Of a DNA stretch of 64,000 bases, positions 1 to 19,330 are shown in pieces. Position numbers and translations under genes: made by a program. The notes under the pieces were generated by a model. The model was not told where the DNA came from. It saw only the letters and a program-made list of their open reading frames with translations, and did no database searches. Every line of letters starts with the position of its first letter. Position 1 is the first letter of the stretch. The stretch is from Candidatus Obscuribacteraceae bacterium (GTDB taxonomy: Bacteria; Cyanobacteriota; Vampirovibrionia; Obscuribacterales; Obscuribacteraceae). Location: assembly GCA_044229845.1 (NCBI GenBank), contig JBGASG010000008.1:32001-96000 (forward strand), read 5' to 3'.

Positions 1-3000
1 GTGCAGTTACGGGCGGTGCGACTATTCGAGGAGCCGCTTGTGCCGATGGGTGGATCGCCAGCTGCAGGCGAAAACTCCGCGCTGGCAAAAGCGCTGACGT
101 TGTATGCCAGCTCGTCCGACAAAGAAGACATATCGTCTCTTCAGGCATTCTTGAAGCAATATCCTCACTCGCGCTGGAGCGCTTCTGTGGCACTGAATGC
201 CGGCTTGTTGCGCCGCGAGCAAGGCTACTTTACTGAGGCGATCGATCTACTTAAGTTGTCCTGGGACGATTCAAAGAACGCGACCTTGAAAGAGCAGCAG
301 CTTGTCGCCCAGCGGGCAGTTTCGGAGCTACTCTTTGTTGAAGCTACTTTTGGCCGACTGAGTGAAATGAAATCAGGGTTGGCCGACATGGGCGATCGGC
401 AGATATTGGGCAGTGCTCGCGAGCGGGTAGATGCGGTACTAGATGCGGTGCACATTATGGAGAAAGCACCGCAAGACGCATTTCTTTGCGGACCGCAAGC
501 GGTCGCAACATTGATTAGGCTTTCCACGGGCAGACCGGCCGATAATGACTCGCCGGTTCGCCAGGCTAAATCCACGCGCGAAGGCACAAATCTTTTGTAC
601 GTGAAGCAACTGGCGGACAGATCGGGACTGAAGCTGCAAGTTGCCAGACGCACCACCCATAGTGCAGAACTGCTGGTTCCTTGTGTCGCCCATTTCCGGC
701 TCGGGCATTTCAGTGTGCTCAGTAAGACAGCGAACGGTAAATACTTTCTCGAAGACCCGACCCTTGACCGCGTCGGCGATATCTGGATCAGCCGTAAGGC
801 AATCAATGCCGAGACCGACGGCTATTTTCTGGTGCGAGCTGGTAGCCTTCCAGACGGCTGGGAAGCGGTCTCAGATAGCGAAGCGGAGAAAGTCTACGGG
901 CGAGGCGGTGCCGAAACCCGCAACGAAGACAAAAGCCACGCGATGCCGATGATCAAATTATCGGCGGGAGGAGTCCCCGCAAAATCACTGAGGATAACCA
1001 GGACACCCAGCAATACCCCGTCACCTAAACCCGACCCCAATCCGGCCGACAACTCGAATGACGATTCGTGCGATTCTTCATCATGGGCCCATAATTTCGA
1101 GGCACAAGACTTTAACGGAAATTGGACGGACAGACCACCGATGGCTGTGCCGTCCGCCTTCCAGATGCAGGCCGAGTTGAATGTGAGCGATACGCCTCTG
1201 TCGTACCGCCTGCCGGTTGGGCTGGCCATGAACTTCTCGGTCAACTACACCCAAAATGAGGTAGATCAGCCCTCTTCATGGACGTTTTCCAACCTCGGAC
1301 CAAACTGGAGCACCAACTTTGTTGCTTGGGTGAAGATAGACGCTTCCAGCAACGCTGTCGCACATCTGCGCAATGGCGGTGTAGAGCGATATCCGTATAG
1401 CGGTAATCCAAGTGTGCCATACTCTCAAAACCTGTACTCGCAGGCGACTCTGGACAATCCCAGTGCGGGAGTGTACCGTCGGCTCCTGCCCGATGGATCG
1501 ATAGAAGTGTTCAGCGTCAGCGATGGCAGCGGCAACTATCTTTTGTCGAGTGTGATCAGCTCGACCGGTCAAGCCACCACTTTGCAGTACGATGTTAACC
1601 ATCGCATCCAGAGCGTGATCGATACCAATGGTAATACCAGCACATTTACACATGTCTCGAACACGCCCGGCAATTCCGGGTTTTATCTGATCTCAGGAAT
1701 AAGCGATCCTTTCGGGCGCTCATGCGCTTTCAGCTATGATGCTACCAATACGTTTTTGCTCAGCATCCAGGATCAGGTGGGTATAGTTTCAACCTTCGCC
1801 TACAACACGGGAACGGGCTTCATCACGTCGATGGTGACGCCTTACGGGACCCACAGTTTCGAAACTTACACCATAACGGCAGGCTACAACTTCCCGGGGC
1901 GCGGGCTGAAAGTGACTTATCCAGATGGCACCATGGCTGTTCTGGAAAACACTCTGGACTTGGAGATCCAGACACGCTACTGGGATCGCGAAGCGATGAG
2001 CCGGTACCCAAACGATCCTACAAACCGCATATTTTCTCACTGCCGGTCGACCCGCTTTTTCAACGAAGGAGTGACGACGAATGAATCAGCCGTAATTAAC
2101 TACACGAAAAACCCGCTTGAATCCCAGGTCTTCATGAACTACCCGGGCAGCTCCTGGCCCAATTTCTTCGGCACGCTCAATCATCCCACCGACACGACGC
2201 AAAGCAACAAGCAAAACCTCAGGCACAGGTTCAGCATCTCAGGCACCATTACTCCCGGCGACATCCTGTACATCAAGGTGATTAGCAATGTGCTGCCGGG
2301 GGGGCAGGAAATAATACCATATACGGTGGCAAGCGGCGATACCGCAGCCAGCATTCTCCAGCAGTTTGCTACGCTCCTCAACAACGATGTCGAGCTCAAC
2401 AAGCGCGGTTATTATGCCCAAATGTTCGGCAATTATCTGATTGCCTTTAGCGGCGACACCTATCCCACCGTGGCCCAGTCCTATACTTCGGTCGGAGCAA
2501 CCGAAACATTCGATTATAAGTTCGACGGCAATCTGTACAGCGATAACGTCAATGTGGTGCTGGGCGGCACGGTGACGCCGGGCGAGACCATTAGCCTATT
2601 TCCGGCTTACACCGATAACCACTACCCGGTGCTCCAGTACGTGGCCCAGGCGGGCGACACGCTAGAGTCAATCGCCAAAAAACTCGCTTACGACATAACG
2701 ACCAACACCTTCTCCCAGCAATACAAGTGGTCGGCCGTTCCCAGAGACAAGAAAATCTGGGTGCACTGCGGCTGGGGCGGCGGCACCATATATGGTAACT
2801 CGACCGGGACAATTACGGTCACCACTCAGAGTGTCACCGACCAAACCCAGAATTTATACGAATGGAATCCTCTCGGCTACGCGACGAAGTTGACTGATCC
2901 GGTGGGGAGGGTCATCTCCAAAACCTACGCCAGCAATAACATTGACTTGCAAGAAGTGCGCGAGACCAGAGACGGCAACAACTTCCTGCTTGGCAAGTGG

Positions 3001-6000
3001 ACCTACAACAGCCAGCATCTGCCGCTGACGTATCTCGATTCGTCTGGGCGCCAGACAAGCTATACTTACAACGTGTTCGGTCAGCTGACATCGGTCACTG
3101 ACCCCCTTTCGCATCTCTCGACCTACCAGTACACATCTAATGCCACCGCTACCGTAGGCGGCACCATCTCCGCCGGCGACCAGGTGAATTTGACTGTCAC
3201 CGATCCGGCGCTGTCAGGCGGCAGCCGCACGGTCTCGTACACGGCCAGCGCCGGGCAAACCCCAGCGCAGGTGGCGGCCGGGCTGACCACCAACATTAAT
3301 GCCGACACTCAACTGCAAGCGCTCGGCTGCACAGGCACCGCCAGCGGTGCCGTCATCACCCTCAAGTGCACCTCCGTCAATGCCACCACCTATAGTCGCA
3401 CCGTCACAGGCGGTGTCACCCTCACCTTGTCCGCCGTCGCCTACGGCTTCTTGACCAAGGTCACAGGTCCCCTGCAGCAAGCGGATGTCACCACCTTTTC
3501 GTGGAACCCCAACGGCACCCTCGCCTCATCGACCAACTCGCGCGGCTACACGCTCGCCTTCCAATATGACGCGCTGGACAGGCTCACGAAAACCACCTAC
3601 CCGGATGGCACCACCGAGGAGACAGGCTACCAAGACCTCGACCCCATCTTCTTCACGGACAGGCTCGGGCGGGTAACCCAGCAGTCTTTCGATAACATGC
3701 AGCAGCTGGCCTTTTCTATCGACCCCCTGGGCAGAAAGACCCAGTACACCTGGTGCTCCTGCGGTGCACTGAAAGTCCTCACCGACCCAGCCGGGCATGC
3801 CACCACCTGGAATTTCGACCTGCAAGGACGCATCGCCGAAAAAGTCTACGCCGACGGCACCAAGACCAGTTACCTCTGGGAGCCCAATCGCAGCGTCGTC
3901 GACGTGAAGCGTGACGCGCTCGCACAAGAGACCCAGTACTACCGCGACTGGGACGGCACGCTCGCCTCGATTCAATATGCCAACGCAGTGAATGCAACCT
4001 CCGCTGTCGTCAATGTCTACGACACGCACTACATGCGAATGGTGCGCGCGCAAAACGGCTGGGGCCAGTACGACTACACTTACAACAACTGCATAACCGA
4101 CCCGCTCGCTCCGCCGATCACAGGCGGCGGCCGCCTCTCCGGCATCACCAATTCGGTCATCCCGAACTCGGCGATAACTTTCCAATACGATGCTGAGGGG
4201 CGCACCACCAACCGCTCCATTAACGGCGCCGCCAACTCAATCACCTGGACATATGACGCCATGAATCGCGTCACCCAGGAGTCAAACGCGCTGGGCGCCT
4301 TCAACTTCACGTACATGAACGACGTCTCGCCGAACAGCAAAGGTGACACCAGGCTGTCCAACATTGCCTACCCCAATGGGCAAAATACAAAGTTCAGCTG
4401 GTTCGACACAAACAGAGATGAGCGCTTGCGCCAGATCTCCAACCAGACATCCACCTCGCAGGTGCTCTCCCAGTTCGACTATTCTTTCGACCCGGCTGGT
4501 CAGATCACCCGCTGGCTGCAGCAGCAAAAGACAAGTCACCAGGGACTGGCGCTCGACTACGATGACGCCGGCCAGCTCACAGGCGCGGTCGGCTCGCAAG
4601 GAGCCGGAACCCTGGCGCCTCCGCACGGCAATCAGAACTATTACGCGTACGACCCAGCGGCCAACCGCACCGCCGCTCAAGTGAGCCAGGTGCAAAAGAT
4701 TGCCTTGAGCGGCACCAAGACCACGGGCGACATAATCACTTTGACGGTCAGCGACAGCGGCTTGACTGGCGGCTCCCAGGCGGTCACCTACACCACCGTA
4801 GCCGCCGACACCCTGACCACCATCGCTACCAAATTGGCGGCAACAATCACCGCCAACAGCAACTTGAAAAACCTGGGCATTGACGCCGTCTCCTCCGGCA
4901 CCACCATTACCCTGCGCTCCAAGTCGCCCAATTTGACGACCTACACCGCAAGCGTCAGCGGACCAGCCACTGAGAAACTGACTTTCGGCATTAACAACGC
5001 CGTGCAGAACATAACCGTAGGCGGCACCGCGCACACGGGCGACGTTCTTCAGGTGATCGTGCGCGACCCGGCGCTCACCGGCGGGCAGACCACCGTCTCG
5101 TACACTGTCCCCGCTTCCCCAACGCTCAACAGCATCGCCTCCGGGCTCGCGGCGGCAATTAACGCCGGCACCGGTCTATCGGCTCTGGCTGTCACCGCCG
5201 CCGCGAACAACACCGTCATTACCGTCACTTCCACTTCGCAGAACGTCACCAGCTACAGTGGCTCTGTCTCCGGCGCTGGCGCCACCGTCACCTTGTCCCT
5301 CGGGCAAGCTATTAATGGCTCGCTGACCGCACTTGTGACCGGCACCAAGACAACAGGCGACATCGTCTCCGTCACCATATTTGATGCCGGCTTGTCCGGC
5401 GGGTCGAAAACGGTTAACTACACCGTTCTGGCCGCAGACACGCTCACGACCATTACGACTGGTCTGACGACCGCAATCAATAACGACACGGCGCTGCAAG
5501 TGATTGGCGTGCGCGCCAGCTCATCCGGGACGAAACTGACACTCACGTCGGTCTCCACCAATGCCACCACTTACCTGCCGTCGACTAAAAACTCCGCCGG
5601 CACCGCGCTCGGCACCGAGAAATTCCTCTGGGGGCTGCCAGCCAACGGCACCACCACCGCGCAAATCTCCGGAACCGTGGCATCTGCTGATGTATTCACG
5701 TTGACCGTTTTCGATGCCGGCTTGACCGGCGGCTCGGTGGCGAAGACCGTCACCGCCAAGACAACGCCGAATGCTGTTGCCACCGGACTCGCCACGGCAA
5801 TTAATGGCGATGCGAACCTCACAGCCATTGGCGTCACCGCCGTCGCATCTACGCCGACCACGTCTGTCTCGGTGACTAACATAACCTCCACGTCGAACAA
5901 TGCCACCACCTATACTTTTAGCCGCACCGGCTCATCCACAATTGCGCTCAGCAAGAGCGTCGGAGTGTCCCAGGCGAGCTTCAACAACATCAACGAGCTG

Positions 6001-7062
6001 ACTGGCATCTCCGCCGGCGGCCCAACGCGCTTCCAGGGCACCACTGACAGACCAGTTTTAACGACCATGACTGTCGCAGGCGGCGCCGTCAACATGCGCA
6101 CATCGCAGAATTTCCAGGCGACGCCGCCTTTGACCTCCGGGTCAAACAGCGTCGCCGTCAGCGCCACCGCCGGTGGCGGCAGCGGCACGACCACGAACAA
6201 TTACAAACTCGAGGTAACCGGCTCTGGCAGCCAGACCCTGACCTACGACGCCAACGGAAATATGACCAGCGACGGCACCAACTCGTACGTCTGGGATTGC
6301 GAAAATCGCCTGATTCAGATCACTTATCCCGGGATCAATAATAAATCGGAATTCACGTACGATCCAATTGGAAGAAATGTTGCCATCGTCGAGACTACTG
6401 GAGGCAGCCCGGCGACACAACAGTTCGTGTGGTTCGCTAGCCAGCGATGTGAGGAACGCGATGGGAGCGGCAATCTAACAAAGCGGTTTTTTGATGATAA
6501 GGGACAGATGAACGGAAGCACTAAGTACTTCTACGCGACAGACCATCTGGGCTCAATTCGAGAAATGACAGACAATTCCGGAGCGGTTCAGTCCCGGTAC
6601 GCTGATGATCCATATGGTCGAGCGACCAAGCTCTTAGCTTCGACTGACTCTGACTTTGGGTTTGCCGGGATGTTTGTACATGCTAGAAGCGGCAGCAATC
6701 TCACGCTCTATCGTCCATACAGCTCTGACCTTGGGAGATGGCTTACAAAAGACCCTCTTGGTGGTGCAAACGCTTACGCATACTGCCTCAATTCGCCAGT
6801 AGCTTATGTTGATCCACTGGGGCTCAGGGCCTACACCGAATCAATCGGGTTGTGTCCACCCTGCTCGCCCCCATGCGACGGAACTCCCGTGCCTCTGCTG
6901 TGCAGATTCAGATTCTCAGAGGAATATGATCCGAGATCGAACAAGTTTTATTGGTCTTCCTCTGTCTATTTCGTCGCACCAGGCAGACGTCCGGGAAGTC
7001 CCAGTATTTATTCCTGGAATCCTAACGGCGACGGAACTTGTAGCTGGCTCGGACCCACCTAG
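1..7062 (+). CDS. Giant Rhs/YD-repeat protein with N-terminal C39-peptidase-like domain, inserted ~95-aa repeats and C-terminal tip; probably 5'-partial
   Basis: YD repeats (YDALDRL, YDAEGRT, YDANGN); Rhs core end DHLGS...YRPYSSDLGRWLTKDPLG...PVAYVDPLGL; CGP..H..DP triad near the N-terminus; ORF is open at position 1. Confidence 0.93.
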   Translation: MQLRAVRLFEEPLVPMGGSPAAGENSALAKALTLYASSSDKEDISSLQAFLKQYPHSRWSASVALNAGLLRREQGYFTEAIDLLKLSWDDSKNATLKEQQLVAQRAVSELLFVEATFGRLSEMKSGLADMGDRQILGSARERVDAVLDAVHIMEKAPQDAFLCGPQAVATLIRLSTGRPADNDSPVRQAKSTREGTNLLYVKQLADRSGLKLQVARRTTHSAELLVPCVAHFRLGHFSVLSKTANGKYFLEDPTLDRVGDIWISRKAINAETDGYFLVRAGSLPDGWEAVSDSEAEKVYGRGGAETRNEDKSHAMPMIKLSAGGVPAKSLRITRTPSNTPSPKPDPNPADNSNDDSCDSSSWAHNFEAQDFNGNWTDRPPMAVPSAFQMQAELNVSDTPLSYRLPVGLAMNFSVNYTQNEVDQPSSWTFSNLGPNWSTNFVAWVKIDASSNAVAHLRNGGVERYPYSGNPSVPYSQNLYSQATLDNPSAGVYRRLLPDGSIEVFSVSDGSGNYLLSSVISSTGQATTLQYDVNHRIQSVIDTNGNTSTFTHVSNTPGNSGFYLISGISDPFGRSCAFSYDATNTFLLSIQDQVGIVSTFAYNTGTGFITSMVTPYGTHSFETYTITAGYNFPGRGLKVTYPDGTMAVLENTLDLEIQTRYWDREAMSRYPNDPTNRIFSHCRSTRFFNEGVTTNESAVINYTKNPLESQVFMNYPGSSWPNFFGTLNHPTDTTQSNKQNLRHRFSISGTITPGDILYIKVISNVLPGGQEIIPYTVASGDTAASILQQFATLLNNDVELNKRGYYAQMFGNYLIAFSGDTYPTVAQSYTSVGATETFDYKFDGNLYSDNVNVVLGGTVTPGETISLFPAYTDNHYPVLQYVAQAGDTLESIAKKLAYDITTNTFSQQYKWSAVPRDKKIWVHCGWGGGTIYGNSTGTITVTTQSVTDQTQNLYEWNPLGYATKLTDPVGRVISKTYASNNIDLQEVRETRDGNNFLLGKWTYNSQHLPLTYLDSSGRQTSYTYNVFGQLTSVTDPLSHLSTYQYTSNATATVGGTISAGDQVNLTVTDPALSGGSRTVSYTASAGQTPAQVAAGLTTNINADTQLQALGCTGTASGAVITLKCTSVNATTYSRTVTGGVTLTLSAVAYGFLTKVTGPLQQADVTTFSWNPNGTLASSTNSRGYTLAFQYDALDRLTKTTYPDGTTEETGYQDLDPIFFTDRLGRVTQQSFDNMQQLAFSIDPLGRKTQYTWCSCGALKVLTDPAGHATTWNFDLQGRIAEKVYADGTKTSYLWEPNRSVVDVKRDALAQETQYYRDWDGTLASIQYANAVNATSAVVNVYDTHYMRMVRAQNGWGQYDYTYNNCITDPLAPPITGGGRLSGITNSVIPNSAITFQYDAEGRTTNRSINGAANSITWTYDAMNRVTQESNALGAFNFTYMNDVSPNSKGDTRLSNIAYPNGQNTKFSWFDTNRDERLRQISNQTSTSQVLSQFDYSFDPAGQITRWLQQQKTSHQGLALDYDDAGQLTGAVGSQGAGTLAPPHGNQNYYAYDPAANRTAAQVSQVQKIALSGTKTTGDIITLTVSDSGLTGGSQAVTYTTVAADTLTTIATKLAATITANSNLKNLGIDAVSSGTTITLRSKSPNLTTYTASVSGPATEKLTFGINNAVQNITVGGTAHTGDVLQVIVRDPALTGGQTTVSYTVPASPTLNSIASGLAAAINAGTGLSALAVTAAANNTVITVTSTSQNVTSYSGSVSGAGATVTLSLGQAINGSLTALVTGTKTTGDIVSVTIFDAGLSGGSKTVNYTVLAADTLTTITTGLTTAINNDTALQVIGVRASSSGTKLTLTSVSTNATTYLPSTKNSAGTALGTEKFLWGLPANGTTTAQISGTVASADVFTLTVFDAGLTGGSVAKTVTAKTTPNAVATGLATAINGDANLTAIGVTAVASTPTTSVSVTNITSTSNNATTYTFSRTGSSTIALSKSVGVSQASFNNINELTGISAGGPTRFQGTTDRPVLTTMTVAGGAVNMRTSQNFQATPPLTSGSNSVAVSATAGGGSGTTTNNYKLEVTGSGSQTLTYDANGNMTSDGTNSYVWDCENRLIQITYPGINNKSEFTYDPIGRNVAIVETTGGSPATQQFVWFASQRCEERDGSGNLTKRFFDDKGQMNGSTKYFYATDHLGSIREMTDNSGAVQSRYADDPYGRATKLLASTDSDFGFAGMFVHARSGSNLTLYRPYSSDLGRWLTKDPLGGANAYAYCLNSPVAYVDPLGLRAYTESIGLCPPCSPPCDGTPVPLLCRFRFSEEYDPRSNKFYWSSSVYFVAPGRRPGSPSIYSWNPNGDGTCSWLGPT
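6317..6332 (+). repeat. 16-bp att-like core AGATCACTTATCCCGG, copy 1 (putative attL, inside rhs)
   Basis: Identical to 11890-11905 and 17728-17743; encodes ITYPG in the rhs frame. Confidence 0.85.
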
Positions 7063-7091
7063 TCGCGGTCTCTCTAAAAGGACGCATCCGG

Positions 7092-7682
7092 CTAGTCAAC
7101 CTTCTTAACCGACTCCTTTGGGCTTGGAATTGTGATCGTCTGCGATGTGAAAACTTGGGAACTGGGAAGCACACTTCCCTCGGCTGTCCCCGGCATGGTA
7201 TCAACCGACGTGACTTGACTCGCCGCGGACGAGGGCTGGGCAGCGACCTGCTCGGCCCTTTTGCGGTAATGCCGCAGCAGAAGTATTGCTGCCGGAAGTG
7301 GGATGAACAGGTAAGTCGAAAGGACTATCGCCGCGCACCAAAAAGCCTTGGCGGATCTCGTTGACTTCGAACGGAAAATCCAGATAAGGTAAGCAGCCGC
7401 AACAACGATGTTCAGTAATTGCAGGGAAACTCTATAGTAACCAAACTCTGTCATTCCGGGCACAAATCGGTGTGGAAGCCCGTACAGAAGCGTCTCCAGC
7501 AGTAATAGCCATTGGGCTGCCGCGTCAAGCAGATAGAATTGAAGCCTATCGCAATCCAGGCGATCTGCAATTTGCAAAGCCAACACGGCTAGATGAAGCG
7601 GCAACAGCGTTAAGACGAGCAAGATAATCCGCGAAGGCAATCCATCCATCCGAGTCTTGTATGCAGTATTTAACAGCTTCAT
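7092..7682 (-). CDS. Multi-pass membrane hypothetical protein (possible immunity or cargo protein)
   Basis: 196-aa ORF with about 4 hydrophobic segments, convergent on the rhs stop. Confidence 0.6.
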   Translation of the reverse strand: MKLLNTAYKTRMDGLPSRIILLVLTLLPLHLAVLALQIADRLDCDRLQFYLLDAAAQWLLLLETLLYGLPHRFVPGMTEFGYYRVSLQLLNIVVAAAYLIWIFRSKSTRSAKAFWCAAIVLSTYLFIPLPAAILLLRHYRKRAEQVAAQPSSAASQVTSVDTMPGTAEGSVLPSSQVFTSQTITIPSPKESVKKVD

Positions 7683-7994
7683 TTCAGCGAAAGATAGCTA
7701 CCGACCTGGCTTCTTGAATCATGATACTCTACATTTCCGGGCATGCAAGCATTGAGGGGTTCTTCTGCTGGCTCGGGCAGGTGGGTACACCACTTTCATA
7801 CAGTTGCGGGCGCGCTGCAGCCAAGCTGTTGATTCACAAACGTGTCCATCACAATCGATCACTGTCGGAAGGAAGAGTCGCGCTAAAGGCGCCAGCATCG
7901 AATGGACCGAAGAACCTTTGCATCAGGCAAGCAATCAGTTATTATCTAATGCGGCTCGTTTATCTAGAACCCGAGGAGATAGAATAGCTCCGAG

Positions 7995-8369
7995 GCAGGA
8001 TAAAGCGATGATTTCATTTTGGCGGAAGCACCGCGGGCGGTGCGTTGCCACGGTTTCAGAGAGTACCCCACATAATGCCGGGTACCCGAGATAGGCTCCT
8101 GGTGACCGCTGAACGGCAGCCGCCCATCGCTGGTGCGTTTGCGGCACCCTTTACCCGGCTTTCTCTTCCTGTCACCGCATACGCCTCGCTAGCTACAGCA
8201 CTCCGACACTATATGTGGTGGCATTCCGGGAACCATCGGCCTTTTCCTGCGTCATCGGAAACTGATGAGTTTACTCGTCATCTCTCCTCGCCCTCATTTT
8301 GAGGAGCCCCTGCAAGCGAATTGCTTGCATCAATGTCCAAGCGCAAAGCGCGCGTGTTCAGAGGTATGA
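7995..8369. repeat. Conserved non-coding module upstream of RHH gene (copy 1; homologous to ~13568-13913, partial copy ~13265-13360)
   Basis: Colinear motifs GCAGGATAA, GCACC-N6-GGTGC, AATGCCG, ACGGCAG.CGCCCATC, CTGCAAGC...GCTTGC and GTCCAAG.GCAA. Confidence 0.8.
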
Positions 8370-8765
8370 ATGCGTTTACCCCAATTCTGTGTTCGCTTCC
8401 CAAAGGAGATGGCAGAAGAAGTCACCCGACTGGCGAAAGCGAACAGGCTCACCCCCGCAGAGATGGTTCGTGAATTGGTCCGCGACGGAATCGTCGCCCG
8501 GGCCGAGGCAACCACCAACTCCCAATTCGCCTACGTAGAGAAGCGTCTGCGGCGAATGGAAGACCGATTTGCTGGCTGGATGATCAAACTCAGTAAAGCC
8601 ATCGCCCAGGTCTTGTTCTTCACCGAGCAGCTCGCGCTGTACGAGGTTGATGAGAAGGACCAAATAGCATTGAAGCAATTGGCGCAAAGCTTCGCGAGGC
8701 AATTTCTGCAACAAAAGACCTCCAGCCATCTAAAAGATGACCAGGAGCATCTGGACCAGGAATAG
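8370..8765 (+). CDS. Ribbon-helix-helix (CopG/TrwA-like) DNA-binding protein
   Basis: N-terminal FCVRFPKEMAEEVTRLAKANRLTPAEMVRELV strand-helix-helix pattern; close paralog at 13914-14303. Confidence 0.75.
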   Translation: MRLPQFCVRFPKEMAEEVTRLAKANRLTPAEMVRELVRDGIVARAEATTNSQFAYVEKRLRRMEDRFAGWMIKLSKAIAQVLFFTEQLALYEVDEKDQIALKQLAQSFARQFLQQKTSSHLKDDQEHLDQE

Positions 8766-9153
8766 CAAGCCGGAGGAGACCAGGGAACGCGTACCGCGCA
8801 CTCAACGTTGCGCAAGGGTGATTCGAATGGCTCAAATCCGGCAATTAGCCTGACGTTGCGCGGTTCCACATCACGCCGTCGGAAATGGACCTTCTGGAGG
8901 TAGCGCGCCTGCGCTCTTATATTGAACTTGACAGCTTTGATATGTGGTTAGGTAATTATTGAGAGATCGGAGAGAGGAGAGTAAACCGAGCCTGCGCCCA
9001 GTGCAAAACCTGTCATATGGAGATTTGCGACTCTCCTCTCACCGCAGCAATAGTCTAACCCGAGGGAAATCTTTGGTCACGTTCGTGAAACCGTATAAGA
9101 GCTTCGGATAAGGCCGCTGCTTCGATCCGCACACTACAATAGAAAGAGGTTCT

Positions 9154-10137
9154 ATGAAGGTTCCAGCTGGTGCGGATATATCCGAACCATGGTTTGACAT
9201 TTGCGTTCTACCACCAAATGGTAAAGCACTTTCCGAGCGCTTTGCGCGAAATGCTCATGGACTTCGAGCCTGTGTCAAATGGCTTGAAGAGAACGGCATT
9301 CAGAGTATCGACTTAGTCATCGAACCGACCGGGCGATACGGTGAAATCGTTGCTGAGTATTTTTCATAAACGCAAGACGCGCGTCTTTGGCGCAGCCGCT
9401 CAAGTTTTCGAAGTACGCTGAATCACACGAGATTCGCATTCGTTCTGATCGGAAGGCAGCGTACCTGCTCGCAGAATACTGCAAAGAGCGTTCTGACAAA
9501 CTTCCTCAGTGGCAGCCAAAGACGAACTTAGAGTGGGAGCTGAGAGACACGGTAGTATTGATTCGTTCGCTGACAAAGCGAACTGTGGCAATCCGATGCC
9601 TTGCATGTGGACTCCGCTCCAAGTTTGTGAAACAGCAGCTCGAAGCCGAGTTGGCGATGGCGGGAGTCTAATTTAGAGCAAACCCTGGGGCGGGCCAAAG
9701 AGCTAATCGGTCAACACCCTGTTCTGAGCAACGATTTCACGCTCTTGTGCACGATCCCTGGAATAGCTGACAGATCAGCGGTCACCCTACTCACGCTTAT
9801 TGATTTCCGGCGCTTTCGTTCAAGTCGGTCTTTAGCATGCTTTCTCGGATTGACCAGCCGAAAACACGCATCAGGAATATCAGTGAGAGAAAAGGATCGT
9901 ATTTCTAAACGAGGAAGTGCGGCAGTTAGGGGAGCTTTATTCATGCCGGCACGCGCCGCGCGAGTACACAATCCCCAGATCAGAGAATTCTCTGAACGCC
10001 TTCTTGCGCAAGGAAAGCACGACTTCACGGTTCAGATGGCGGTGATCCGCAAGCTCGTGGTGACAGCTTGGTCCGTCATCCACAGCCAAACAGCTTGGGA
10101 CGCAAACCACGTAAACCCACACTTCAAAGCGTCTTAG
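9154..10137 (+). pseudogene. IS110-family transposase, frameshifted into three pieces
   Basis: N-terminal GADIS..WFD and EPTGRY (DEDD RuvC-like); C-terminal TIPGI, FLGL...SG.S, ISKRGS..VR.ALF; split over ORFs 9154-9369, 9387-9671 and 9745-10137. Confidence 0.9.
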
Positions 10138-10233
10138 TTCGACATCGAAGTGCACTGAATACGGTGCCAGTTGCTTCGCAACTGGCGAACTTGTTTGCGC
10201 GCGTTCACCAGATTGACATTTGACGGGAAATCT

Positions 10234-10357
10234 CCATGCCGGCTAAAGCCGAGCAGCGGACCCCTCCTGTCAAGGCTAAACCCCTTCGGGGTGTCTGCTG
10301 CGCAGCCAGCCTTGACAGCAGGAACCCGGTCCGCCGCTATTCCGCATGGGGGCATGG
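10234..10357. other. Long nested stem-loop upstream of integrase
   Basis: CCATGCC/GGCATGG, GCGGACC/GGTCCGC and CTGTCAAGGCT/AGCCTTGACAG stems enclosing a small TTCG hairpin. Confidence 0.7.
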
Positions 10358-10506
10358 CGACTTGGCGCGGATTTTTCTGAAAGCAAAAAACAGCAAACCT
10401 CGGAAAGCCACATCCAATCAGCCATAGCAGAAGCAATTTTTGCTCAAGTCGTCGACATAGTGACGACACAACTTTACAAACACCCCCAAAATTCAAAGGC
10501 GAAAGA

Positions 10507-11748
10507 ATGCCCAAATTGACCCAAAAGTTTGTGAACGAAGTAGAACCCCCGGAGCGAGGTCAGAAGATCTACCGGGACACCGTGCTTGTCGGTCTTGCGT
10601 TACGCGTCACTCCCGGAAGCAAGACGTATGTCGTTGAGGCGCGAGTAAATGGTGTCGCCAGAAGAATCACTCTGGGCAAAAATGGCCCGCTGACTCCTGC
10701 CACGGCCCGAAAGAAAGCGCGCAAGATTCAAGCGATGATGGCGGCAGGCAAAGACCCCATGGTCGAGAGAGCGAAGAAAAAGACCATCGGTGTCACCCTG
10801 CACGACATCCTTGAGCAGTTCTTGTCGGTGAGAAATCTGAAGCCGAACACGACCCGGTGTTACCGATATATGGTGACGCGCTGTCTGCGCGACTGGCTAG
10901 ATCTGCCGGTGGTTTCAATCACGCGGGACATGGTAGAGCAGCGACACTCGGACCTGCGCAGGACGACGAGGCAAGGCACATCGGGGGAGGCGCAAGCGAA
11001 CACCGTGATGCACATGCTTGGCACGCTGCTGAACTTCGCTGCAGCCAACTACGACATCGACGAAAAACCCATCATCTTATATAACCCGGTCAAGCGGCTG
11101 TCACAAAATCGCCGCTGGTATCCAGAGCGCAGGCGACAAACGGTGATCCCGGACCACAAGCTGCCAGACTGGTATCAAGTCGTTGTGTCGCTCCGGCACC
11201 CCACCATCAGAGATTACCTTCTGCTCTTACTCTTCACGGGCTTGCGTCGCAATGAAGCCGCCACACTGCGGTGGGCTGATATCGATTTCGAGTCGAAGGT
11301 TTTGACCATTCGGGCGGAGATTGCGAAGAACGGAAAGGAACACCGCCTGCCGTTAAGCGATTTCCTCGAAGATCTGTTGAAGCGACGGCACGCGGAACGC
11401 GGGGATGCAGAGTATGTGTTTCCCGGACGCAGCGCCAAGCGCCACATCGTCGACTCGGACCATGTGATCAGTGGAGTGGCACAGAAGGCCGGTTGCCCAT
11501 TCACCCTCCACGATCTGCGCAGAACCTTCCTCACCGTCGCCGAGCGACTGGCACTTTCATACGTGGTTTTGAAGAAGCTCGCCAACCACTCGGGAAGGAA
11601 CGACACCACGTTCGGTTATCTTGTAGTCGACGTGGAAAGACTGCGTGAACCCATGCAAAAGATCACCAACGAGTTTGTGGCTATGTGCAAGGCGAAAGAA
11701 ACAGAGAAAGCCTCGGCAAATCCAACCGACGTCCAGGAAGCTCAGTAG
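10507..11748 (+). CDS. Tyrosine recombinase/integrase with N-terminal arm-DNA-binding domain
   Basis: N-terminal KLT...D...GLALRVT..SKTY...RRITLG; catalytic R (GLRRNE), K (AKNG), HDLRR, H (ANHS) and Y (TFGY) all present. Confidence 0.95.
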   Translation: MPKLTQKFVNEVEPPERGQKIYRDTVLVGLALRVTPGSKTYVVEARVNGVARRITLGKNGPLTPATARKKARKIQAMMAAGKDPMVERAKKKTIGVTLHDILEQFLSVRNLKPNTTRCYRYMVTRCLRDWLDLPVVSITRDMVEQRHSDLRRTTRQGTSGEAQANTVMHMLGTLLNFAAANYDIDEKPIILYNPVKRLSQNRRWYPERRRQTVIPDHKLPDWYQVVVSLRHPTIRDYLLLLLFTGLRRNEAATLRWADIDFESKVLTIRAEIAKNGKEHRLPLSDFLEDLLKRRHAERGDAEYVFPGRSAKRHIVDSDHVISGVAQKAGCPFTLHDLRRTFLTVAERLALSYVVLKKLANHSGRNDTTFGYLVVDVERLREPMQKITNEFVAMCKAKETEKASANPTDVQEAQ

Positions 11749-11783
11749 AAGCGCTTTTCGCGCACAGGCAAATTTTTCTTGTT

Positions 11784-11906
11784 GTCGACACTGTGGCGAC
11801 AACGATCACAAGGATCCGTTTCATCCGTTTCTTGCATTGCCATCTCCGTGTGGCATCCGCACCACCCACGGTGCCAACGAGTTTTAGAAAGATCACTTAT
11901 CCCGGA
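11784..11906 (+). repeat. Putative attR 1: arm repeats, palindrome and core
   Basis: GTCGACA/GGCGACA (11784, 11795), GCACC-N6-GGTGC (11859-11874), TAGAAAGATCACTTATCCCGGA (11885-11906); same architecture at 17623-17744. Confidence 0.8.
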
Positions 11907-12842
11907 ACGAATAATAAGACAGAGTTCATCTACGCGCCAATGGAGGGAATTGCGAAAATTGTGGAGACGGTCAGCGGCAGCGTGACCAGTACGAAGCAGT
12001 TCCCGGGAGGAGAAGAACGCGACGGTAGCGGTGCTGTGACCAAGCAGTTCTTTGCCCAAGGACAGAGAAATGGCTCTACCAACTACTTCTATAGTCGCGA
12101 CCACCTCGGCTCGGTCCGCACAATGACGGACAACAGCGGTGTTTCTGCATCTGATCGAACTTTCGACCCCTATGGACGGATAACCGTCCTTAGCGAAAGC
12201 ACGGCGCCTGATTTTGGATTCGCGGGAATGTATGTCCACAGCAGGAGCGGACTTAATTTGACGACCTTCAGAGCTTACAATCCGGCCATTGCGCGATGGA
12301 TCAACCGAGACCCTCTGGGCGAAAGGGGCGCACTGAATGCGTATGGTTATGCGGATGGCAATCCCGTCAGCTTCGTTGACAGACTGGGACTCTTCACATT
12401 TGATGCCAAAGCATGCGCTGAGATAGAGAAATTTCTGAAATTCATGGCGGACATGTCTCGGGCAACAGGCAGAGAAGTTGGTGCAGGGTTTAACTACAAC
12501 AACGGTGTGCCAGAATTTCTGCAAGGACCACCCCATCTTGGAACAAGCAATCACGTTGATATTGAGGCGTGGACCTCTGGCGTGGCAATGACGCACGTAA
12601 TCGGTGATCCCGGACCCATGGGCTTTCTCAACGTTCCGCTTTGGGACAATTCAGGGTTCAATCAGAGTGACTATCAATTCTCTTTGAACTCGGCTCAACA
12701 AATCTGGACCATGAATGGCTCCGGCAACCTCTTTGTACTAGAAAGAGGGCAGCTGTACCAGATACAAGCGGGGTGCAACAAGTGTGAGTTCAGGGGAGCT
12801 GGACCGAAGGGCGACCCGGCAATTCACCGGCCAGTCCCCTAA
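11889..12842 (+). pseudogene. Orphan Rhs 3' module (core end plus distinct C-terminal toxin domain) with no start codon of its own
   Basis: Homology to the main Rhs begins exactly at KITYPG; DHLGS, RWINRDPLG and PVSFVDRLGL present; the tip after 12392 is unrelated to the main tip. Confidence 0.9.
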
Positions 12843-12921
12843 TAAGCGTGCCCTTGCGGGAAACCGTGTTGCGCTGACGCAGAATTTGTGCGATCTGTAC
12901 TACCCAGGGACTAAGGTGCGT

Positions 12922-13158
12922 ATGAAAGTCAAGAAAAAAACGGTGACTATCGGGTGCGTGGGACTGCTCATGGGTGGCATCGGGTTTCTGACGTCCGTAT
13001 ACATCCAAGAGGAGCATATTCCACCTGATAATCCACCTCCTGGTTTTAGGAGGTATCGTCGTACGCCTTTGCTGCACACTGTCATCGACAACATCACCAT
13101 CAATTCTGCTTCATTCGTTGCAAGAGGCATCAGTGCTTTGCGCTCCTCCGACAACTGA
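12922..13158 (+). CDS. Small membrane-anchored protein, candidate immunity protein for the orphan tip
   Basis: 78 aa, basic N-terminus plus hydrophobic segment, directly downstream of the Rhs tip. Confidence 0.45.
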   Translation: MKVKKKTVTIGCVGLLMGGIGFLTSVYIQEEHIPPDNPPPGFRRYRRTPLLHTVIDNITINSASFVARGISALRSSDN

Positions 13159-13913
13159 AGATAGATCAGAACCAGGTAGGAAGAGATCGTCGCATCGGCG
13201 ACAGAATAAGCGCCTTGCGCGTCTCACATTGTTGGTCTCATTTACTCGTGAACTAGCTGCCCGGGCAGGATAAACAAGTGCTAGCAAACGGGCGCAAAGC
13301 ACCACGAGTGGTGCCTTTTCACGGTAGCATCGACGTTCGCCGTGAATGCCGCATACCCGCAATCAAGTTGCACTCGGCACTGGGATAGCCACACGTCTAA
13401 ATACGACGATTCGTATGGAGTTGGCACGCCAGTGTTCTATAGTTACACTGACAAAACTGGATTGCACGACTAGATAACATCGGAGTAAATCATGGCCTGG
13501 ATAGCGTACTTCTTAGTTGGAAGCAAGCCGGATGCGCGCAAGTTCTGCCAATTACGAGGCGAGCATAGCAGGATAAGAGGATGATACCAAATGGCGGAAA
13601 GCACCACGGGCGGTGCCTTTCGACGGTATCGTCCACGCCCTACACGAATGCCGCAGACCTAAAAGCATCGCGTAGTCAGTGCGGCACGGCAGTCGCCCAT
13701 CACTAGTGCCTTTCCGGGTTCCATTGCTCTAGCTTTCTTACCCTTGCGGATGTTATCTCACACCATATATGGTGGCTTCGAGGGAACAAATCTCGCCGAT
13801 ATGCTTCAATGGTAATGGCGAGTTACTCGCCGAAACTCCCTCGGGAGTTCCCTGCAAGCTCCTTTGCTTGCGTCAACGTCCAAGTGCAATAGCACGTGCC
13901 CTTTGAGGTATCA

Positions 13914-14303
13914 ATGCGTTTACCCCAGTTTTGCGTTCGCTTCCCGCCAGAGATAGCTGAAGAAGTCTATCGGCTAGCGAAGGCGAACGGCGTCTCACAG
14001 TCCGACATGATTCGGGATCTGGTGCGCGACGGAATCATCGTCCGCGCAGAGGCCACCACGAATTCTCAATTCCAGTACGTAGAGCAACGCCTGCGTCGAA
14101 TAGAAGAACGCTTTGCCGGCTGGATGATCAAGCTTAGCAAAGCGACCGCCCAGACCTGGTTTTTCACAGAGCAACTCGCACTCTTCGAAGTGGATGAGGA
14201 GGACCAGATAGCATTGCGGCGAGCAGCAGAAAGGTTCATGAGCCAATTTCTGCAAATAAAGACCGCTCGCTATGAGCGGGAGCATCCAGTCCAGGACGAA
14301 TAG
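13914..14303 (+). CDS. Ribbon-helix-helix protein, paralog of 8370-8765
   Basis: MRLPQFCVRFP...RAEATTNSQF.YVE.RLRR.E.RFAGWMIKLSKA shared with the first copy. Confidence 0.78.
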   Translation: MRLPQFCVRFPPEIAEEVYRLAKANGVSQSDMIRDLVRDGIIVRAEATTNSQFQYVEQRLRRIEERFAGWMIKLSKATAQTWFFTEQLALFEVDEEDQIALRRAAERFMSQFLQIKTARYEREHPVQDE

Positions 14304-14439
14304 ACCAGAGGAAGCGTGTGCGTCCGGTAGTCCACGTCGTGGGAATTTGTGCAGGGGTGTGGTTTGCTAATTGCACATGCGGCGCGGCTAGTTCGAAGCT
14401 ACGAAAAGCGCTTGCACACCGAGTCACTGAGGGCAAGTC

Positions 14440-14913
14440 GTGGCACGAGCAAGAAGAACAGATACAACGCACAACACCAACAGCGAACTTTTAACACGGA
14501 ATGAAGCTGCCCAGTATCTAGGCGTTTCTCCTAACACATTGGCGATCTGGAGTTGCACCGGGCGGTACGACTTACCCTTCGTGAAAGTTGGTCGGCTTGC
14601 AAAATACCAGAGGTCAACACTGGATCATTTCCTGCAGCGGCGCACGAAACACTGGGACGGAACGGAAACCGGGCGTGCAGACCGGCCTTGTGTAGCACCA
14701 GCATACACACCGTCTAAAAAAGCGCCCGCCGTGCGGCCGCAAGAGGTCGAATTTCGGGAAGTGAGGCTGGTCGAGCCACGCAGAGAAGAGGACCTGCCTC
14801 CATCGAACGGTGTGCTGGAAATCGCTCTACCCAGTGGTATCACTCTTCGACTGCCGGCAGGTTGTTCTCCGGACTTTCTCGCTTCGGTAATCGCCACATT
14901 GGAGAAATCGTAG
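14440..14913 (+). CDS. tnpA: IS66 accessory protein TnpA with excisionase-like HTH N-terminus
   Basis: LLTRNEAAQYLGVSPNTL..W HTH; C-terminal LEIALPSGITLRL typical of IS66 TnpA; overlaps the tnpB start. Confidence 0.75.
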   Translation: MARARRTDTTHNTNSELLTRNEAAQYLGVSPNTLAIWSCTGRYDLPFVKVGRLAKYQRSTLDHFLQRRTKHWDGTETGRADRPCVAPAYTPSKKAPAVRPQEVEFREVRLVEPRREEDLPPSNGVLEIALPSGITLRLPAGCSPDFLASVIATLEKS

Positions 14914-15320
14914 TGTTCAATTTGTCACCATCGGTGCGCATTTTCGTTTGCACAAAGCCGGTCGACATGCGGCGTTCGTTCGACGGGCTGTTCGGGCTTG
15001 TTCAGACGCTGGTGCACCAAGACCCGTTTTCTGGATCGCTCTTTCTCTTCCGCAGTCGACGCGGCGACTTCATCAAAATTCTCTGGTGGGACCTCGACGG
15101 ATTTGCCATTTTTGCAAAGCGTCTCGAAGTCGGAACATTCCGTTTTCCAGAAGTGCGGTTCGTGAACGGCGAGTATGAAGCACTGGAGATGGAACGATCC
15201 GACCTTCTCCTGCTTCTGGAGGGCATCGACACCGATTCTGTGAAGAGACTGAAGCGCTACCGCCGGAAAAGCCCGGGATCAAGCCAAAAGTCCACCCCAA
15301 AAGTACCCGCCGTGAGGTGA
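14913..15320 (+). CDS. tnpB: IS66 accessory protein TnpB
   Basis: PVDMRRSFDGL, DPFSGSLFLFRSRR, KILWWDLDGF..FAKRLE.G.F motifs. Confidence 0.93.
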   Translation: MFNLSPSVRIFVCTKPVDMRRSFDGLFGLVQTLVHQDPFSGSLFLFRSRRGDFIKILWWDLDGFAIFAKRLEVGTFRFPEVRFVNGEYEALEMERSDLLLLLEGIDTDSVKRLKRYRRKSPGSSQKSTPKVPAVR

Positions 15321-15502
15321 GCAAACATCCGATCGCCATCTGGTGGCACTTCCGAGAAACGAGGAGTAAAACATAATAGAATTTTCCAAGACGCTGGCCG
15401 GCAATGTCGCCACCATTGGCGGTGCAATACAGATCAGTCAGATCTAAGCTGCAAAATACGGTCCCGAGTAGTACCATATACGGTATCACCCAGGTATTTG
15501 CC

Positions 15503-17048
15503 GTGCCAAAATCCGAAGATTCCGAAAATACGCGCCTCAGAAAAGAAAATGCCCGGCTCCAAAAGTCGCTGGACCGCATGGAGAAGCAGCTCCAAGAAGC
15601 CAATGACGCCAACAAAGAGCTGCGCGCGCTCATGAAGGATCTCCAGGAAAAACTCGACATCCTTATCGTCCAATTCAAAAAACGGAATCGCAAGGACTTT
15701 GGCAACAAGACTGAACGACACAATCCGCGGCCGGCACTCGCTGACGAATTGTCTCCTCTGACTGCTAAGGAAAAGTCGACTCCAAAACCACGCAATCACA
15801 TCAAGCACATTCTCTCGCAGAACCTTCCCCCTGAGATTGTTCCGCACACCGTTAAGCCGGAAGATGCAACCTGTCCCTACTGCATCGTTGACACCGTTTT
15901 CGTCGGCACCGAAGTGACCCACCAGTTGGAGCGCTTGACTCAAACGCTTAAACATCTGCAGCATGAGCAGGAAGTTCGGGCGTGCCCGAAGTGTAGGAAG
16001 TACATCGTCACTGCAGAAAAACCTTGTTCGCCAATTCCCGGCAGCTACGCCGGACCGGGACTGCTCGCGGACGTCTGTGTGAACAAACTTGCAGACGGGC
16101 TTCCAAACTACAGACAGGAGAAAAGATACAAACGCGAAAGTGCCACCATACCACGGTCCACTCAAAGTGATTGGATGCTGGCTGCCTCGTTTACTGTTGA
16201 GCCCTCTGTACGATCTCGTTACTCGACGCCTGCTCCTTTCTCGCGTAATACAGACGGACGACAGCGAACTTAAGGTCCAGGACCGGAAGCACAAGCGAAA
16301 AATGCGCAAAGGCAAAATGACTGTTTACCGCGGGGATGAGAATCACAGGTTTGTAGCCTTCGATTTCTCTCCCGATCAAACCTTCGCCAGGAACATTGCA
16401 TTCCTCGAACAGTTTGTCGGCATCGTACAGGCCGACGCCGCAAAGGGCTTCGACAAGCTGTACGAGGATGGCACCAAAGTCGAGGCCGGTTGTAACGCCC
16501 ATTCGCGCAGGAAGTACTACGAAGCGCTGGTGATTGATCCTCAAAGCTGCAACCCGATCCTGGACATCTATCACGCACTTTACGACATCGAAGCAGAGAT
16601 CAAGACACGGAGTCCTGCGGAGAAGCTGGCTGAGCGACAAGCACGATCGAAGCCACTCGTTGGGCAGCTTCACGCCCTGGTTCTCTCTCTTAGTGAGAAA
16701 TTGAACCCGAAACATCCAGTCATGCGCGCCGTCCAGTACACACTCACTCACTGGCAGGCGCTCACTCGTTTTCTCGAAGATCCTGCCATCAATATCGACA
16801 ACAACGCCGCCGAGCGAGAAATCAAAGACTTCGTGATTGATCGAAAGAATTTCCTGTTCGCAGGCTCGGACGCTGGCGGTAAGTCGATTGCCATTCTCCT
16901 GACTCTCATTGCCTCTGCGAAGCGCAACAAGATCGACCCACGTGCATACCTCACCGACGTGTTTACGCGCATCAACTCCATGAAGACCAGCGAGCTTGAG
17001 CAGCTTCTTCCGGACCGGTGGACGCCAAACCAAAACAAAGTCTCCTGA
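15503..17048 (+). pseudogene. tnpC: IS66 transposase TnpC with frameshift near 16205
   Basis: Leucine zipper, CPYC/CPKC zinc finger, DDSE, ADA, C.AHSRRK, IDNNAAERE and LLP.RW; reading frame switches at VEP/LYDL. Confidence 0.9.
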
Positions 17049-17114
17049 ATTTCGCTACCTCAGGAAACCACGCCCCACCTTAATTTTCCAGGACGTGAAG
17101 AACCGGACGCACAC

Positions 17115-17164
17115 TCTATCTCTTCCAAATCGAGTTCGGCAGCAGAAGTGATGAGGAGCTTCAC
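17115..17164 (-). pseudogene. Truncated ParE/RelE-family toxin N-terminus
   Basis: GTG-started KLLITSAAELDLEEI just after the antitoxin stop, cut exactly at the IS66 right end. Confidence 0.7.
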
Positions 17165-17172
17165 GTTGAACT

Positions 17173-17391
17173 CTACAGTCTTGACTGAGCTTTTTTGCGC
17201 AGTTTTGCGAGCACTTCCTCGGCTGGCTTCAATTCACCACGGTCCGCAGCGGCAATGCCCTTCTGTATGTCTCGGCGAAAATCCTCAGCCCTAAGCTCTC
17301 GCATCAACTGTTCACGTTCTTCCGGGGACAGCTGATCTACCAGTTTCAAAACCTGGTCGACGGTTGGTCTTTTGTTTCGAGATTGAGTCAT
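17173..17391 (-). CDS. ParD-like/addiction-module antitoxin
   Basis: 72 aa; RRDIQKGIAAADRGELKPAEEVL motif; directly upstream of the ParE-like fragment. Confidence 0.72.
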   Translation of the reverse strand: MTQSRNKRPTVDQVLKLVDQLSPEEREQLMRELRAEDFRRDIQKGIAAADRGELKPAEEVLAKLRKKAQSRL

Positions 17392-17622
17392 GAAAACACT
17401 TCTACGAGACTTCTACAGCCTGCTGATAGTTTACCACGGCCGGACGAACGCTCTAAGAGAGGCACAGGCGCCCGATGAAGGAATCCTATGGGACTTGAAG
17501 CGTCGGAGCATCGCGGATTACCCGGGACAGGATTAGCGAGAATAGCCGCGGAAGAGAAAGAGCCAGAACCTTACGCGAGCAGTCCGAAAACGAAATCAAC
17601 GCAGATTGAATTTGCGCGACTC

Positions 17623-17744
17623 GTCGACACTGCAGCGACAGCGGTGGGACACCTCTTGATCATGCCTCGTCGGAATCCCACTCCTGGTGCGGTAGTGGCA
17701 CCACGTGCGGTGCCAGCGGATCTAGAAAGATCACTTATCCCGGA
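17623..17744 (+). repeat. Putative attR 2: arm repeats, palindrome and core
   Basis: GTCGACA/AGCGACA (17623, 17634), GCACC-N6-GGTGC (17698-17713), 22-bp identity with 11885-11906 at 17723-17744. Confidence 0.8.
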
Positions 17745-17839
17745 TCATCGACGCGAGGTCGTCAACATGAATCGATTCGATCGCAGAGCCCCTCCACGCT
17801 CTGTCTCCGCGTAAAAGAGTCTCCGACTCCGCCTACTCC

Positions 17840-18350
17840 GGCAGTAAGCGATGAAACCGGAGGGTAGAAAGGCACGAAAGGTTCGAAGCGTCTAGCCACA
17901 CACAGAAGCTAAGGACCAAGGGGAGACCGGCACGGTCAGCGAAAGCAAATCATCGTACGCTCCGTAATAAGTGAATTGGTGAAAGTGGCTGTCACACCAA
18001 GCCCAAAAGGGAAGCGGGTTGGCTGCTCCACGTCCTGGGATGAGCAGCGAGGAGGCTACATTCCTGCCGGAGTATAGATGGGACCTAAACCGGTCGCTAG
18101 TCATGTTGACGGAACGCGGTAAACCTCATTGGCTCTCGCCCGTTCTGCGAGTAATCGAAGCGCAAGCAACGACTAACGCCCAGGAGGCAACGGATTCTGG
18201 AAGAAGCGAAAGCCTTGCTGGAATGGCAAGGATCGGGCTAAGCTGTTTTTGGCAAATTAAAAGTAGGCCGCGTGGCAGTCGAAAATTAGGCCACCCACCC
18301 ACCGGAGGCGGATGAACAAAGGCATATACGGCAGCTGGGCTGCCGTATAT
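17840..18350 (+). ncRNA. Probable group II intron ribozyme remnant (5' domains); boundaries approximate
   Basis: Intron-like motifs GAACGCGGTAAACC and AGCGAAAGCCTTGCTGGAATGGCAAGGA upstream of a group II intron RT fragment. Confidence 0.45.
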
Positions 18351-18570
18351 GCGATGAGGGTAAGTCAGCGCGAAGCCGAACTCGTAGACAGTTTTTAGTC
18401 AGTCTTTCGCACTTTTTTGCGTCGCAAGCTTTCTTTGAAGCGATAGCTTTCGCTGTTGGCCTCAACGATGTGACAGCGATGATTGAGCCGATCAAGAACC
18501 GCGGCCGTTAGATTTTTGGTCATGAAGGCAGACGACCAATCACCAAATTCTAGGTTGGTCGTGATGATAG

Positions 18571-19191: not shown

Positions 19192-19330
19192 GATTTCTCA
19201 TGATGCGCTAGCACCAGATGTGGTATCATTCACAACCACTGCGGCGCGTCAAAGAATCCCCGTAAGTGAGCCATGCAACTTCCATCTCTTAGAATCTAGA
19301 ATTTGGCCCGAATGATCGGGGCCACCTCAT

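Follow-up and report, generated by a model that had tools for sequence, protein, structure and literature searches.

How a polymorphic toxin gene can acquire new C-terminal tips and yet retain the old ones is an old question. It is raised by an rhs locus of Candidatus Obscuribacteraceae bacterium (assembly GCA_044229845.1, contig JBGASG010000008.1, positions 32,001 to 96,000 of the forward strand), a stretch of 64,000 nt that is called the window here and whose numbering is used throughout. The locus very probably belongs to a family of integrative elements of 3.5-7 kb, whose tyrosine integrase targets a fixed codon in rhs and swaps the tip of the gene.

The full-length rhs gene (1..7062, + strand) starts about 260 bases upstream of window position 1. 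It displays the hallmarks of rhs systems, i.e., YD repeats, the Rhs-associated core, a DPxGL-type motif and a variable C-terminus, together with a peptidase C39 domain and a hydrophobic N-terminus that suggests Sec export. A 16-mer lies in frame within this gene at 6317..6332, and exact copies are present at 11890..11905 and 17728..17743, all on one strand. No further copy with three or fewer mismatches is found in the window, and in 100 shuffled windows the mean number of matches was 0.31, with three matches in 0/100. The homology of an orphan Rhs module starts exactly at the second core, 141 bases past the stop codon of the integrase gene, and joining 6316 to 11890 (removal of 6317-11889) gives 2422 stop-free codons counted from window position 1. 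Thus the positions of the 16-mers, the integrase ahead of the second core, the in-frame onset of the orphan module and the uninterrupted frame left by deletion, all of which had been noted from the letters of the window alone, were reproduced.

The first core is taken as the left attachment site (attL), which in sequence is a regenerated attB, with the crossover region within 6317-6326. Tip 1 (6317..7062, + strand) appears to have been brought by element 1 and is fused to the rhs body. The middle core would be both the right end of element 1 and the left end of element 2, and from it runs orphan tip 2 (11890..12842, + strand) with its frame intact. No Rhs sequence was found in the window downstream of the third core. 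In G001 the same 635-base right end as that of element 2 (98.6% identical) is followed by an Rhs tip, and another locus, L088, likewise terminates in a core without a tip; because of these two cases the third core is read as a genuine right end (attR) that lost its downstream tip. The tandem stacking of tip-bearing elements that was part of the original prediction is therefore borne out in part: both core-to-core intervals start with an Rhs tip and contain a paralogous non-coding module and ribbon-helix-helix (RHH) gene, but the second interval has no integrase and the third core no tip.

An assembly artefact could be suspected in a metagenome bin rich in repeats such as this one. However, independently assembled Logan contigs from other runs bridge all three junctions with 0 differences: core 1 in X3 record 25 and X10 record 2, core 2 in X3 record 28, X10 record 5 and X12 record 12, and core 3 in X3 record 30, X10 record 8, X12 record 15 and X15 record 24. 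This search covered the assembled contigs of 4 of the 24 listed public runs, and such contigs drop rare variants. The same pattern is also found in 13 genomes, and the chance that the cores or junctions are artefacts is practically negligible.

The integrase (10507-11748, + strand) is intact, with Phage_integrase and Arm-DNA-bind_3 domains and a complete catalytic set (R247, K274, H335, R338, H361 and Y371). The source genome (G000, 88% complete) has six paralogues, 69-100% identical, on contigs C1, C3 (three), C13 and C22, and downstream of each (6/6) there is a non-coding arm and then an Rhs fragment with the same first base. On C22 the tip behind a 99% identical integrase is a different one, its protein being 52% identical to that of tip 2; on C3 a different tip leads into a backbone with 95% identity to window 7995-10022. 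Rough dN/dS values of 0.008 and 0.05 in two indel-free pairs (two pairs with indels were discarded) point to purifying selection on the integrase.

Relatives were searched for in 104 genomes of the family, in genome, metagenome and viral collections, and in 300 further genomes of the phylum. Where records carry a name, the close relatives fall in Candidatus Melainabacteria/Obscuribacterales. Among 36 distinct integrases at least 50% identical to it, 27, from 13 genomes and 5 metagenome contigs, precede a core and tip within 3.2 kb, with a left arm that is not Rhs; for two others, one of them at a contig end, the core is there but no tip can be recognised, and three have too little sequence. 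A tree was made by a quick method with a midpoint root from 103 of 106 sequences, three short rows being omitted. It has a branch with maximal support (SH-aLRT 100) that holds 65 rows, of which 53 are near an Rhs core, 9 are on short contigs and 3 are without one; the sister branch has 38 rows and 0 near Rhs. As a control, a hidden Markov model of the Rhs core, trained on this lineage so that distant Rhs could escape it, matched 44/56 ingroup loci and 0/38 sister loci. No relative was found at E 1e-110 in the 300 genomes from other families, nor any in the viral contig collection. The expectation that homologues of this integrase are tied to rhs fragments is thus upheld by the shared start base, the tree and the sister control alike.

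The attachment site could be delimited by comparing 37 orphan tips, all of which begin at the identical base, with 35 full-length junctions. The target comprises about 10 bases at the codons I-T/D/N-Y, roughly 170 codons ahead of the DPxGL motif. In 42 within-array pairs, core positions 1-10 are conserved at an identity of 0.95-1.00, against 0.64 for position 11, 0.50 for position 14 and 0.17 for position -1, whereas between arrays positions 5-7 are just 0.45-0.54 identical. Tyrosine integrases need homology between the partners across the crossover region. Because within-array identity stays high over the first 10 core bases and falls beyond them, the crossover must lie there, probably within the first 7. 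Inverted core-type arms (7/9 complementary) were seen at two G014 sites only. Tips 1 and 2 of the window are 61% identical over 450 bases, and their longest exact shared run is the 16-mer itself.

Short motifs occupy fixed places around the integrase and to the left of the core. Among integrases at least 66% identical, a direct-repeat pair with an 11-base period is present 55-59 bases before the integrase start in 11/17, and 104-107 bases left of the core in 6/18, against a background of 0.5% in each case; right of the core it is found within 600 bases in 1/18 and has no fixed place. In the window the pairs are at 10451..10468 (+ strand, 56 bases before the integrase start), probably an arm-type site or an operator, at 11784..11801 (+ strand, 106 bases left of the core), a likely arm-type site, and at 17623-17640 in the right arm of element 2 (17623..17713, + strand). 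In 16/18 a GCACC-N6-GGTGC-like box precedes the core by 29-31 bases; its window copies in this position are 11859..11874, 31 bases from the core, and 17698-17713. The palindrome is also found in the window at 8028, 13299, 13601 and 22673. There are 274 genome-wide copies, compared with 8-25 for other spacer lengths, and it is a candidate site for a host DNA-binding protein. As a recombination site it was ruled out by these 274 copies and by the breakpoints of permuted modules, which fall inside the core.

Upstream of the integrase is a conserved structured non-coding motif (10232..10372, + strand) with compensatory changes. Its 14 aligned copies before integrases contain 47 base pairs, 11 with changes on both sides, and 96% of cells are paired vs 30-40% when the structure is slid; the copies are related sequences, and the covariation is not a probability. 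In the source genome it is found at the six integrases only. Rfam gave 0 matches across window 6000-23000, this motif included, and promoter and terminator scans showed no signal above chance.

Permuted arrays in relatives define what moves. Two modules, A (tip and integrase) and B (tip and insertion sequence (IS) cargo, with no integrase match), occur in copies identical over 4813-5505 bases, in the orders B-A-Z1 (G102), B-A-Z2 (L033) and A-B-Z3 (L032), the terminal tips Z1 to Z3 being different. This identity has its left limit at base 1, and at the right end it runs on for 11-17 bases, which puts the breakpoints inside the core; the left junction of A in L032 lies beyond the contig edge. 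Since the order of identical modules varies and the breakpoints fall within the core, the comparison shows a tip and the DNA to its right, its cargo, to travel as one unit, as far as assembled sequences can tell. The A-to-B and B-to-A junctions fit a two-unit circle that was excised and re-entered via either core, or separate insertions. Chimerism at these junctions is unlikely because the stretches they share do not reach the word lengths that assemblers usually work with. In a survey of 20 core-to-core intervals, each of at most 12.0 kb, the only widely recurring genes are the tip (20/20) and the integrase (15/20).

A mechanism can be proposed from these data, in which we infer the integrase to be the agent and circular forms the intermediates. 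To the right of its attachment core the circle would hold the end of an Rhs core, followed by a variable C-terminal domain and the gene next to it. On integration the tip of the element would be joined in frame to the rhs body, the resident tip would come to lie behind the right end of the element and the target would be regenerated at the left junction, so that elements could stack. Recombination between cores would remove a single element or more than one, and elements that re-enter at the front would alter the order and thereby the expressed tip. The core of the original prediction, an element that brings a new Rhs 3′ end, enters site-specifically and displaces the old tip, is supported by the linkage and by the permuted modules.

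Several observations weigh against this reading. The integrase is missing from 5/20 intervals, and 4/36 integrases at least 50% identical have no core inside 3.2 kb. Half of the within-array pairs (21/42) come from one genome, G014, and in a symmetry test the 7-base overlap (positions 1-7) was not the top-scoring window. The arrays L032, L033 and G102 share kilobases of sequence without a single base difference and may be non-independent samples, known from assembled contigs only. Neither the empty joint 6316/11890 nor the circle joint is present in the contigs of the four runs, and no excisionase gene is common to the 20 intervals. Thus the reversibility that had been predicted is suggested by the reordered modules of relatives, but neither an excision joint of this element nor a shared excisionase was found. 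Excision may likewise occur in the source genome. Finally, a Pfam scan of the variable part of the tips gave matches above the cut-off in 4/56 (1 TseH, a known effector family, and 3 DUF6973), and relaxase, coupling protein and VgrG were not found in the source genome (88% complete).

Some candidate signs of excision were discarded. In an X12 joint between 6335 and 12012 about 100 bases have no match, and a paralogous tip accounts for it. X3 record 27 corresponds to the C22 locus of this species and is no independent case, and differences of depth in X12 cannot be interpreted from contigs. The HTH_17 open reading frame at 14440, considered as an excisionase gene, lies inside IS66 copies.

The strongest competing view accepts the same mechanism and differs on function alone: an ordinary selfish island sits at a conserved rhs codon and repairs the gene end, the tips being by-products of an effectively one-way process with no selected switch. 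Replacement of the target end is, in the available text of PMC10111431, the usual rule for integrases, and decay is visible here in the IS110 and IS66 insertions, the lost integrase and the lost terminal tip; the lack of an excision joint in the contigs of four runs would also be expected. However, the replacement spans 250-390 codons with unrelated C-terminal domains, the tip and the integrase are all that the elements have in common, orphan tips mostly retain open frames, and order changes do occur. A merely selfish island is thus considered unlikely, although it retains appreciable weight. That one resident integrase moves passive tip cassettes in trans, as in an integron, is improbable. 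It would explain the intervals without an integrase, two of which are only 1.8-2.0 kb, and how module B changed position with no integrase of its own; but 15/20 intervals hold their own integrase, element 2 of the window seems to have lost its copy at the IS66, and the integrase scores 22.3 bits vs an integron-integrase (TIGR02249) cut-off of 265. Some action in trans is compatible with rhs-targeted elements that swap tips.

Host homologous recombination would make the integrase a mere neighbour and the 16-mer a conserved coding stretch. Exchange of tips in this way is established for Salmonella rhs, over 522 bases at 95% (PMC3967940), and was proposed generally (PMC2935791), as far as the available portions of these papers go; some fragments in the present data do begin at other positions. 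It fits poorly with base-exact breakpoints in 37 orphans against non-coding left arms, with window tips just 61% identical, with arm motifs at fixed distances and with Rhs linkage that tracks the integrase tree, and it is very improbable as the main cause. Insertion by a dedicated integrase at a fixed rhs codon therefore remains the preferred reading.

The non-coding module and RHH gene shared by the two window intervals look like a putative conjugative transfer origin (oriT) with an accessory protein. The first oriT copy (7995..8369, + strand) precedes an RHH gene (8370..8765, + strand) whose product is likely a relaxosome accessory protein; behind tip 2 are a partial (13265) and a complete (13568) copy (13265..13913, + strand) and a second RHH gene (13896..14303, + strand), 69% identical to the first. 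Homologues of the RHH gene precede MOB_P-like relaxases elsewhere: of 16 loci fetched and 14 scanned, 11/14 have the gene next to MOB_P/RlxS-like relaxases, most of the relaxase matches being below curated cut-offs. The window modules start exactly at the 9-mer GCAGGATAA, which we take to match the reverse complement of the MOB_P nick consensus, and which is found 146-509 bases upstream of RHH homologues in 11/13 scored loci. In 15 pairs of six close module copies, 11 pairs match at 85-100% to the right of the 9-mer and show no relation to its left, 3 have related sequence on either side and 1 is unclear. The RHH gene is found in 4/20 intervals, all in the source genome; outside that genome an oriT-like motif lies ahead of 4 integrases, but not most, and so belongs to part of the family. 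No element-encoded relaxase was found.

Transfer between cells may then proceed from a relaxase-less oriT served by a helper conjugative element, and a transfer that started at one nick site of an array and ended at the following one would couple one backbone with the next tip. A wider reading, which we put forward tentatively and on which our opinion is almost evenly divided, is that of an active two-enzyme toxin cassette system. An integrase core and a relaxase nick site would bracket each tip and its neighbour gene; integration and excision would reorder arrays within a population and vary the expressed tip, while conjugation, running between successive nick sites of a tandem array, would create new backbone-tip hybrids and spread them; because the sequence right of the core is Rhs coding on both sides, attL would equal attB and attR would equal attP, a one-armed site that may need no excisionase; and at least two rhs positions would be used by different integrase subclades.

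The tips consist of a DPxGL-type motif followed by 70-220 variable residues. The variable C-terminus of tip 1 has 79 residues with no Pfam match or other family match. The C-terminus of tip 2 is JAB/MPN-like by Atlas (0.91), and JAB/MPN chains occupy most of the top rows in a search with its predicted fold (pLDDT 79), the best having a Z of 7.2, an rmsd of 3.1 and 106 aligned residues, which is below the tool's clear level. A homologue of tip 2 caps a long rhs frame on C18. The largest open reading frame adjoining a tip is on the same strand in 42/60 and on the opposite strand in 14/60, and is absent in 4/60. Tip 1 belongs to the second group: its neighbour, a predicted membrane protein with no family match (7092..7682, - strand), is a possible immunity gene, though an atypical one by its orientation. 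After tip 2 is a small open reading frame (12784..13158, + strand), also without a family match, that may be an immunity gene. Toxicity of the tips is likely because of what is known of the Rhs family. The description of the tips as toxins thus has family knowledge and the JAB-like predicted fold of tip 2 on its side, while tip 1 is matchless and its neighbour is not a typical immunity gene.

Likenesses to known systems place the family among gene-rebuilding integrative elements, its own trait being the replacement of Rhs tips at a fixed codon. In integrons an array stands behind a single expression position, units enter at the front, their order can change, and attC hairpins serve as sites. 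The first three features are shared here; however most units have their own integrase, the entry site lies inside a reading frame and a protein fusion is made, the integrase falls far short of the IntI-type model (TIGR02249, 22.3 bits), and no attC hairpins are evident, although they were not sought. The family is integron-like within a reading frame, yet is no integron. In shufflons (R64 pilV/Rci) a tyrosine recombinase inverts fixed segments at inverted sites and so varies the C-terminus of one protein. Here too a tyrosine recombinase would change the C-terminus of one protein, but the cores are direct repeats on the same strand, units are gained and lost, and the repertoire is open-ended. 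MGI-type mobilisable islands lack a relaxase and have an integrase and an oriT, with transfer functions from a helper. The present elements share the integrase and a putative oriT; they differ in that the oriT-like motif is found in part of the family only and that the cargo is a gene end that needs fusion to a host gene. The element e14 is an icd-type island that carries a replacement gene end. Such islands resemble the present elements, as far as the available text of PMC10111431 describes them, in an arm-binding tyrosine integrase, a short core in coding sequence, restoration of the gene and tandem stacking. They normally keep the same protein, whereas here a different C-terminal domain is supplied, and arm-type repeats have no fixed place right of the core.

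For Rhs itself, Jackson 2009 (PMC2935791) proposed that the old tip is shunted downstream through a circular intermediate; in the available text of that paper no integrase was then known with Rhs. Koskiniemi 2014 (PMC3967940), in the portion available, describes activation of an orphan tip in Salmonella. Strings of displaced tips behind an intact rhs and the proposed circle are common to that model, to Salmonella and to the present arrays; the differences here are a dedicated integrase clade, a single base-exact breakpoint and arm motifs. Integrase genes beside Rhs or orphan contact-dependent inhibition (CDI) modules were described by Steele 2017 (PMC5727410) and Ruhe 2016 (PMC4927057), with site-specific recombination suggested as a possibility; the available sections of both define no attachment site, element boundary or reordering. 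A full-text literature search, with most subscription papers outside its coverage, found no attachment site mapped inside rhs, and "rhs" matches in PMC3414803 were labels of catalytic motifs rather than Rhs genes. Thus the claim that no such switch had been described narrows to the mapped site, the displacement by a circle and the nearby integrases being already in print. The family would supply the circular carrier that the 2009 model, as its available text has it (PMC2935791), required, together with the enzyme and a base-exact site, and thereby makes that model testable with no more than a single gene and two short stretches of DNA. Further gains are a set of C-terminal domains, mostly without annotation, from a lineage that has not been cultured, and an integrase family that would generate in-frame protein fusions.

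Other features of the window reflect insertion and decay. An IS110-family transposase gene (9154..10137, + strand) is frameshifted. An IS66-family element with unequal flanks (14316..17114, + strand), whose first open reading frame is an HTH_17 domain fused to a TnpA-like end and of which copies are found on C1, C3, C20 and C22, occupies the place expected for the integrase of element 2. That integrase was likely lost at the IS66 insertion, because the homologous right end on C22 trails an intact integrase. A small antitoxin-like gene follows (17173..17391, - strand); its C22 homologue sits between the intact integrase and the core. Beyond the third core, 18543-22162 contains an IS-like transposase fragment whose start is duplicated at 21951-22162. 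The same region holds part of a group II intron reverse-transcriptase gene (19367-19711) and a HipA-like gene of 652 residues (19851-21809).

Further arrays and site classes were seen among the relatives. A second attachment class is placed about 690 codons nearer the start of rhs, at residue ~1416 (W-x-Y-D), with sites at C1:1059176 and 1044350 in the source genome, L091:2133 and L104:5794. These adjoin 46-50% identical integrases of one tree branch; the displaced fragments are about 950 codons and the intervals 13-15 kb, and in G102 the first class is nested within. A possible third class is represented by L184:8005-14840, where a 48% identical integrase precedes four tandem tips of a different Rhs family that start in register. 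Integrases of one subclade, 43-45% identical (L110, L111, L114, L117, L119 and L120), have the opposite orientation to nearby Rhs cores, with three repeats in G092. In G014 (L053-L054) an array of at least 7 cores has integrase-less units of 1.8 and 2.0 kb, and resemblance to Rhs codons persists in its left arms. At C22:403462 of the source genome an Rhs tip has a left arm of only about eight rhs codons, the gene body being deleted.

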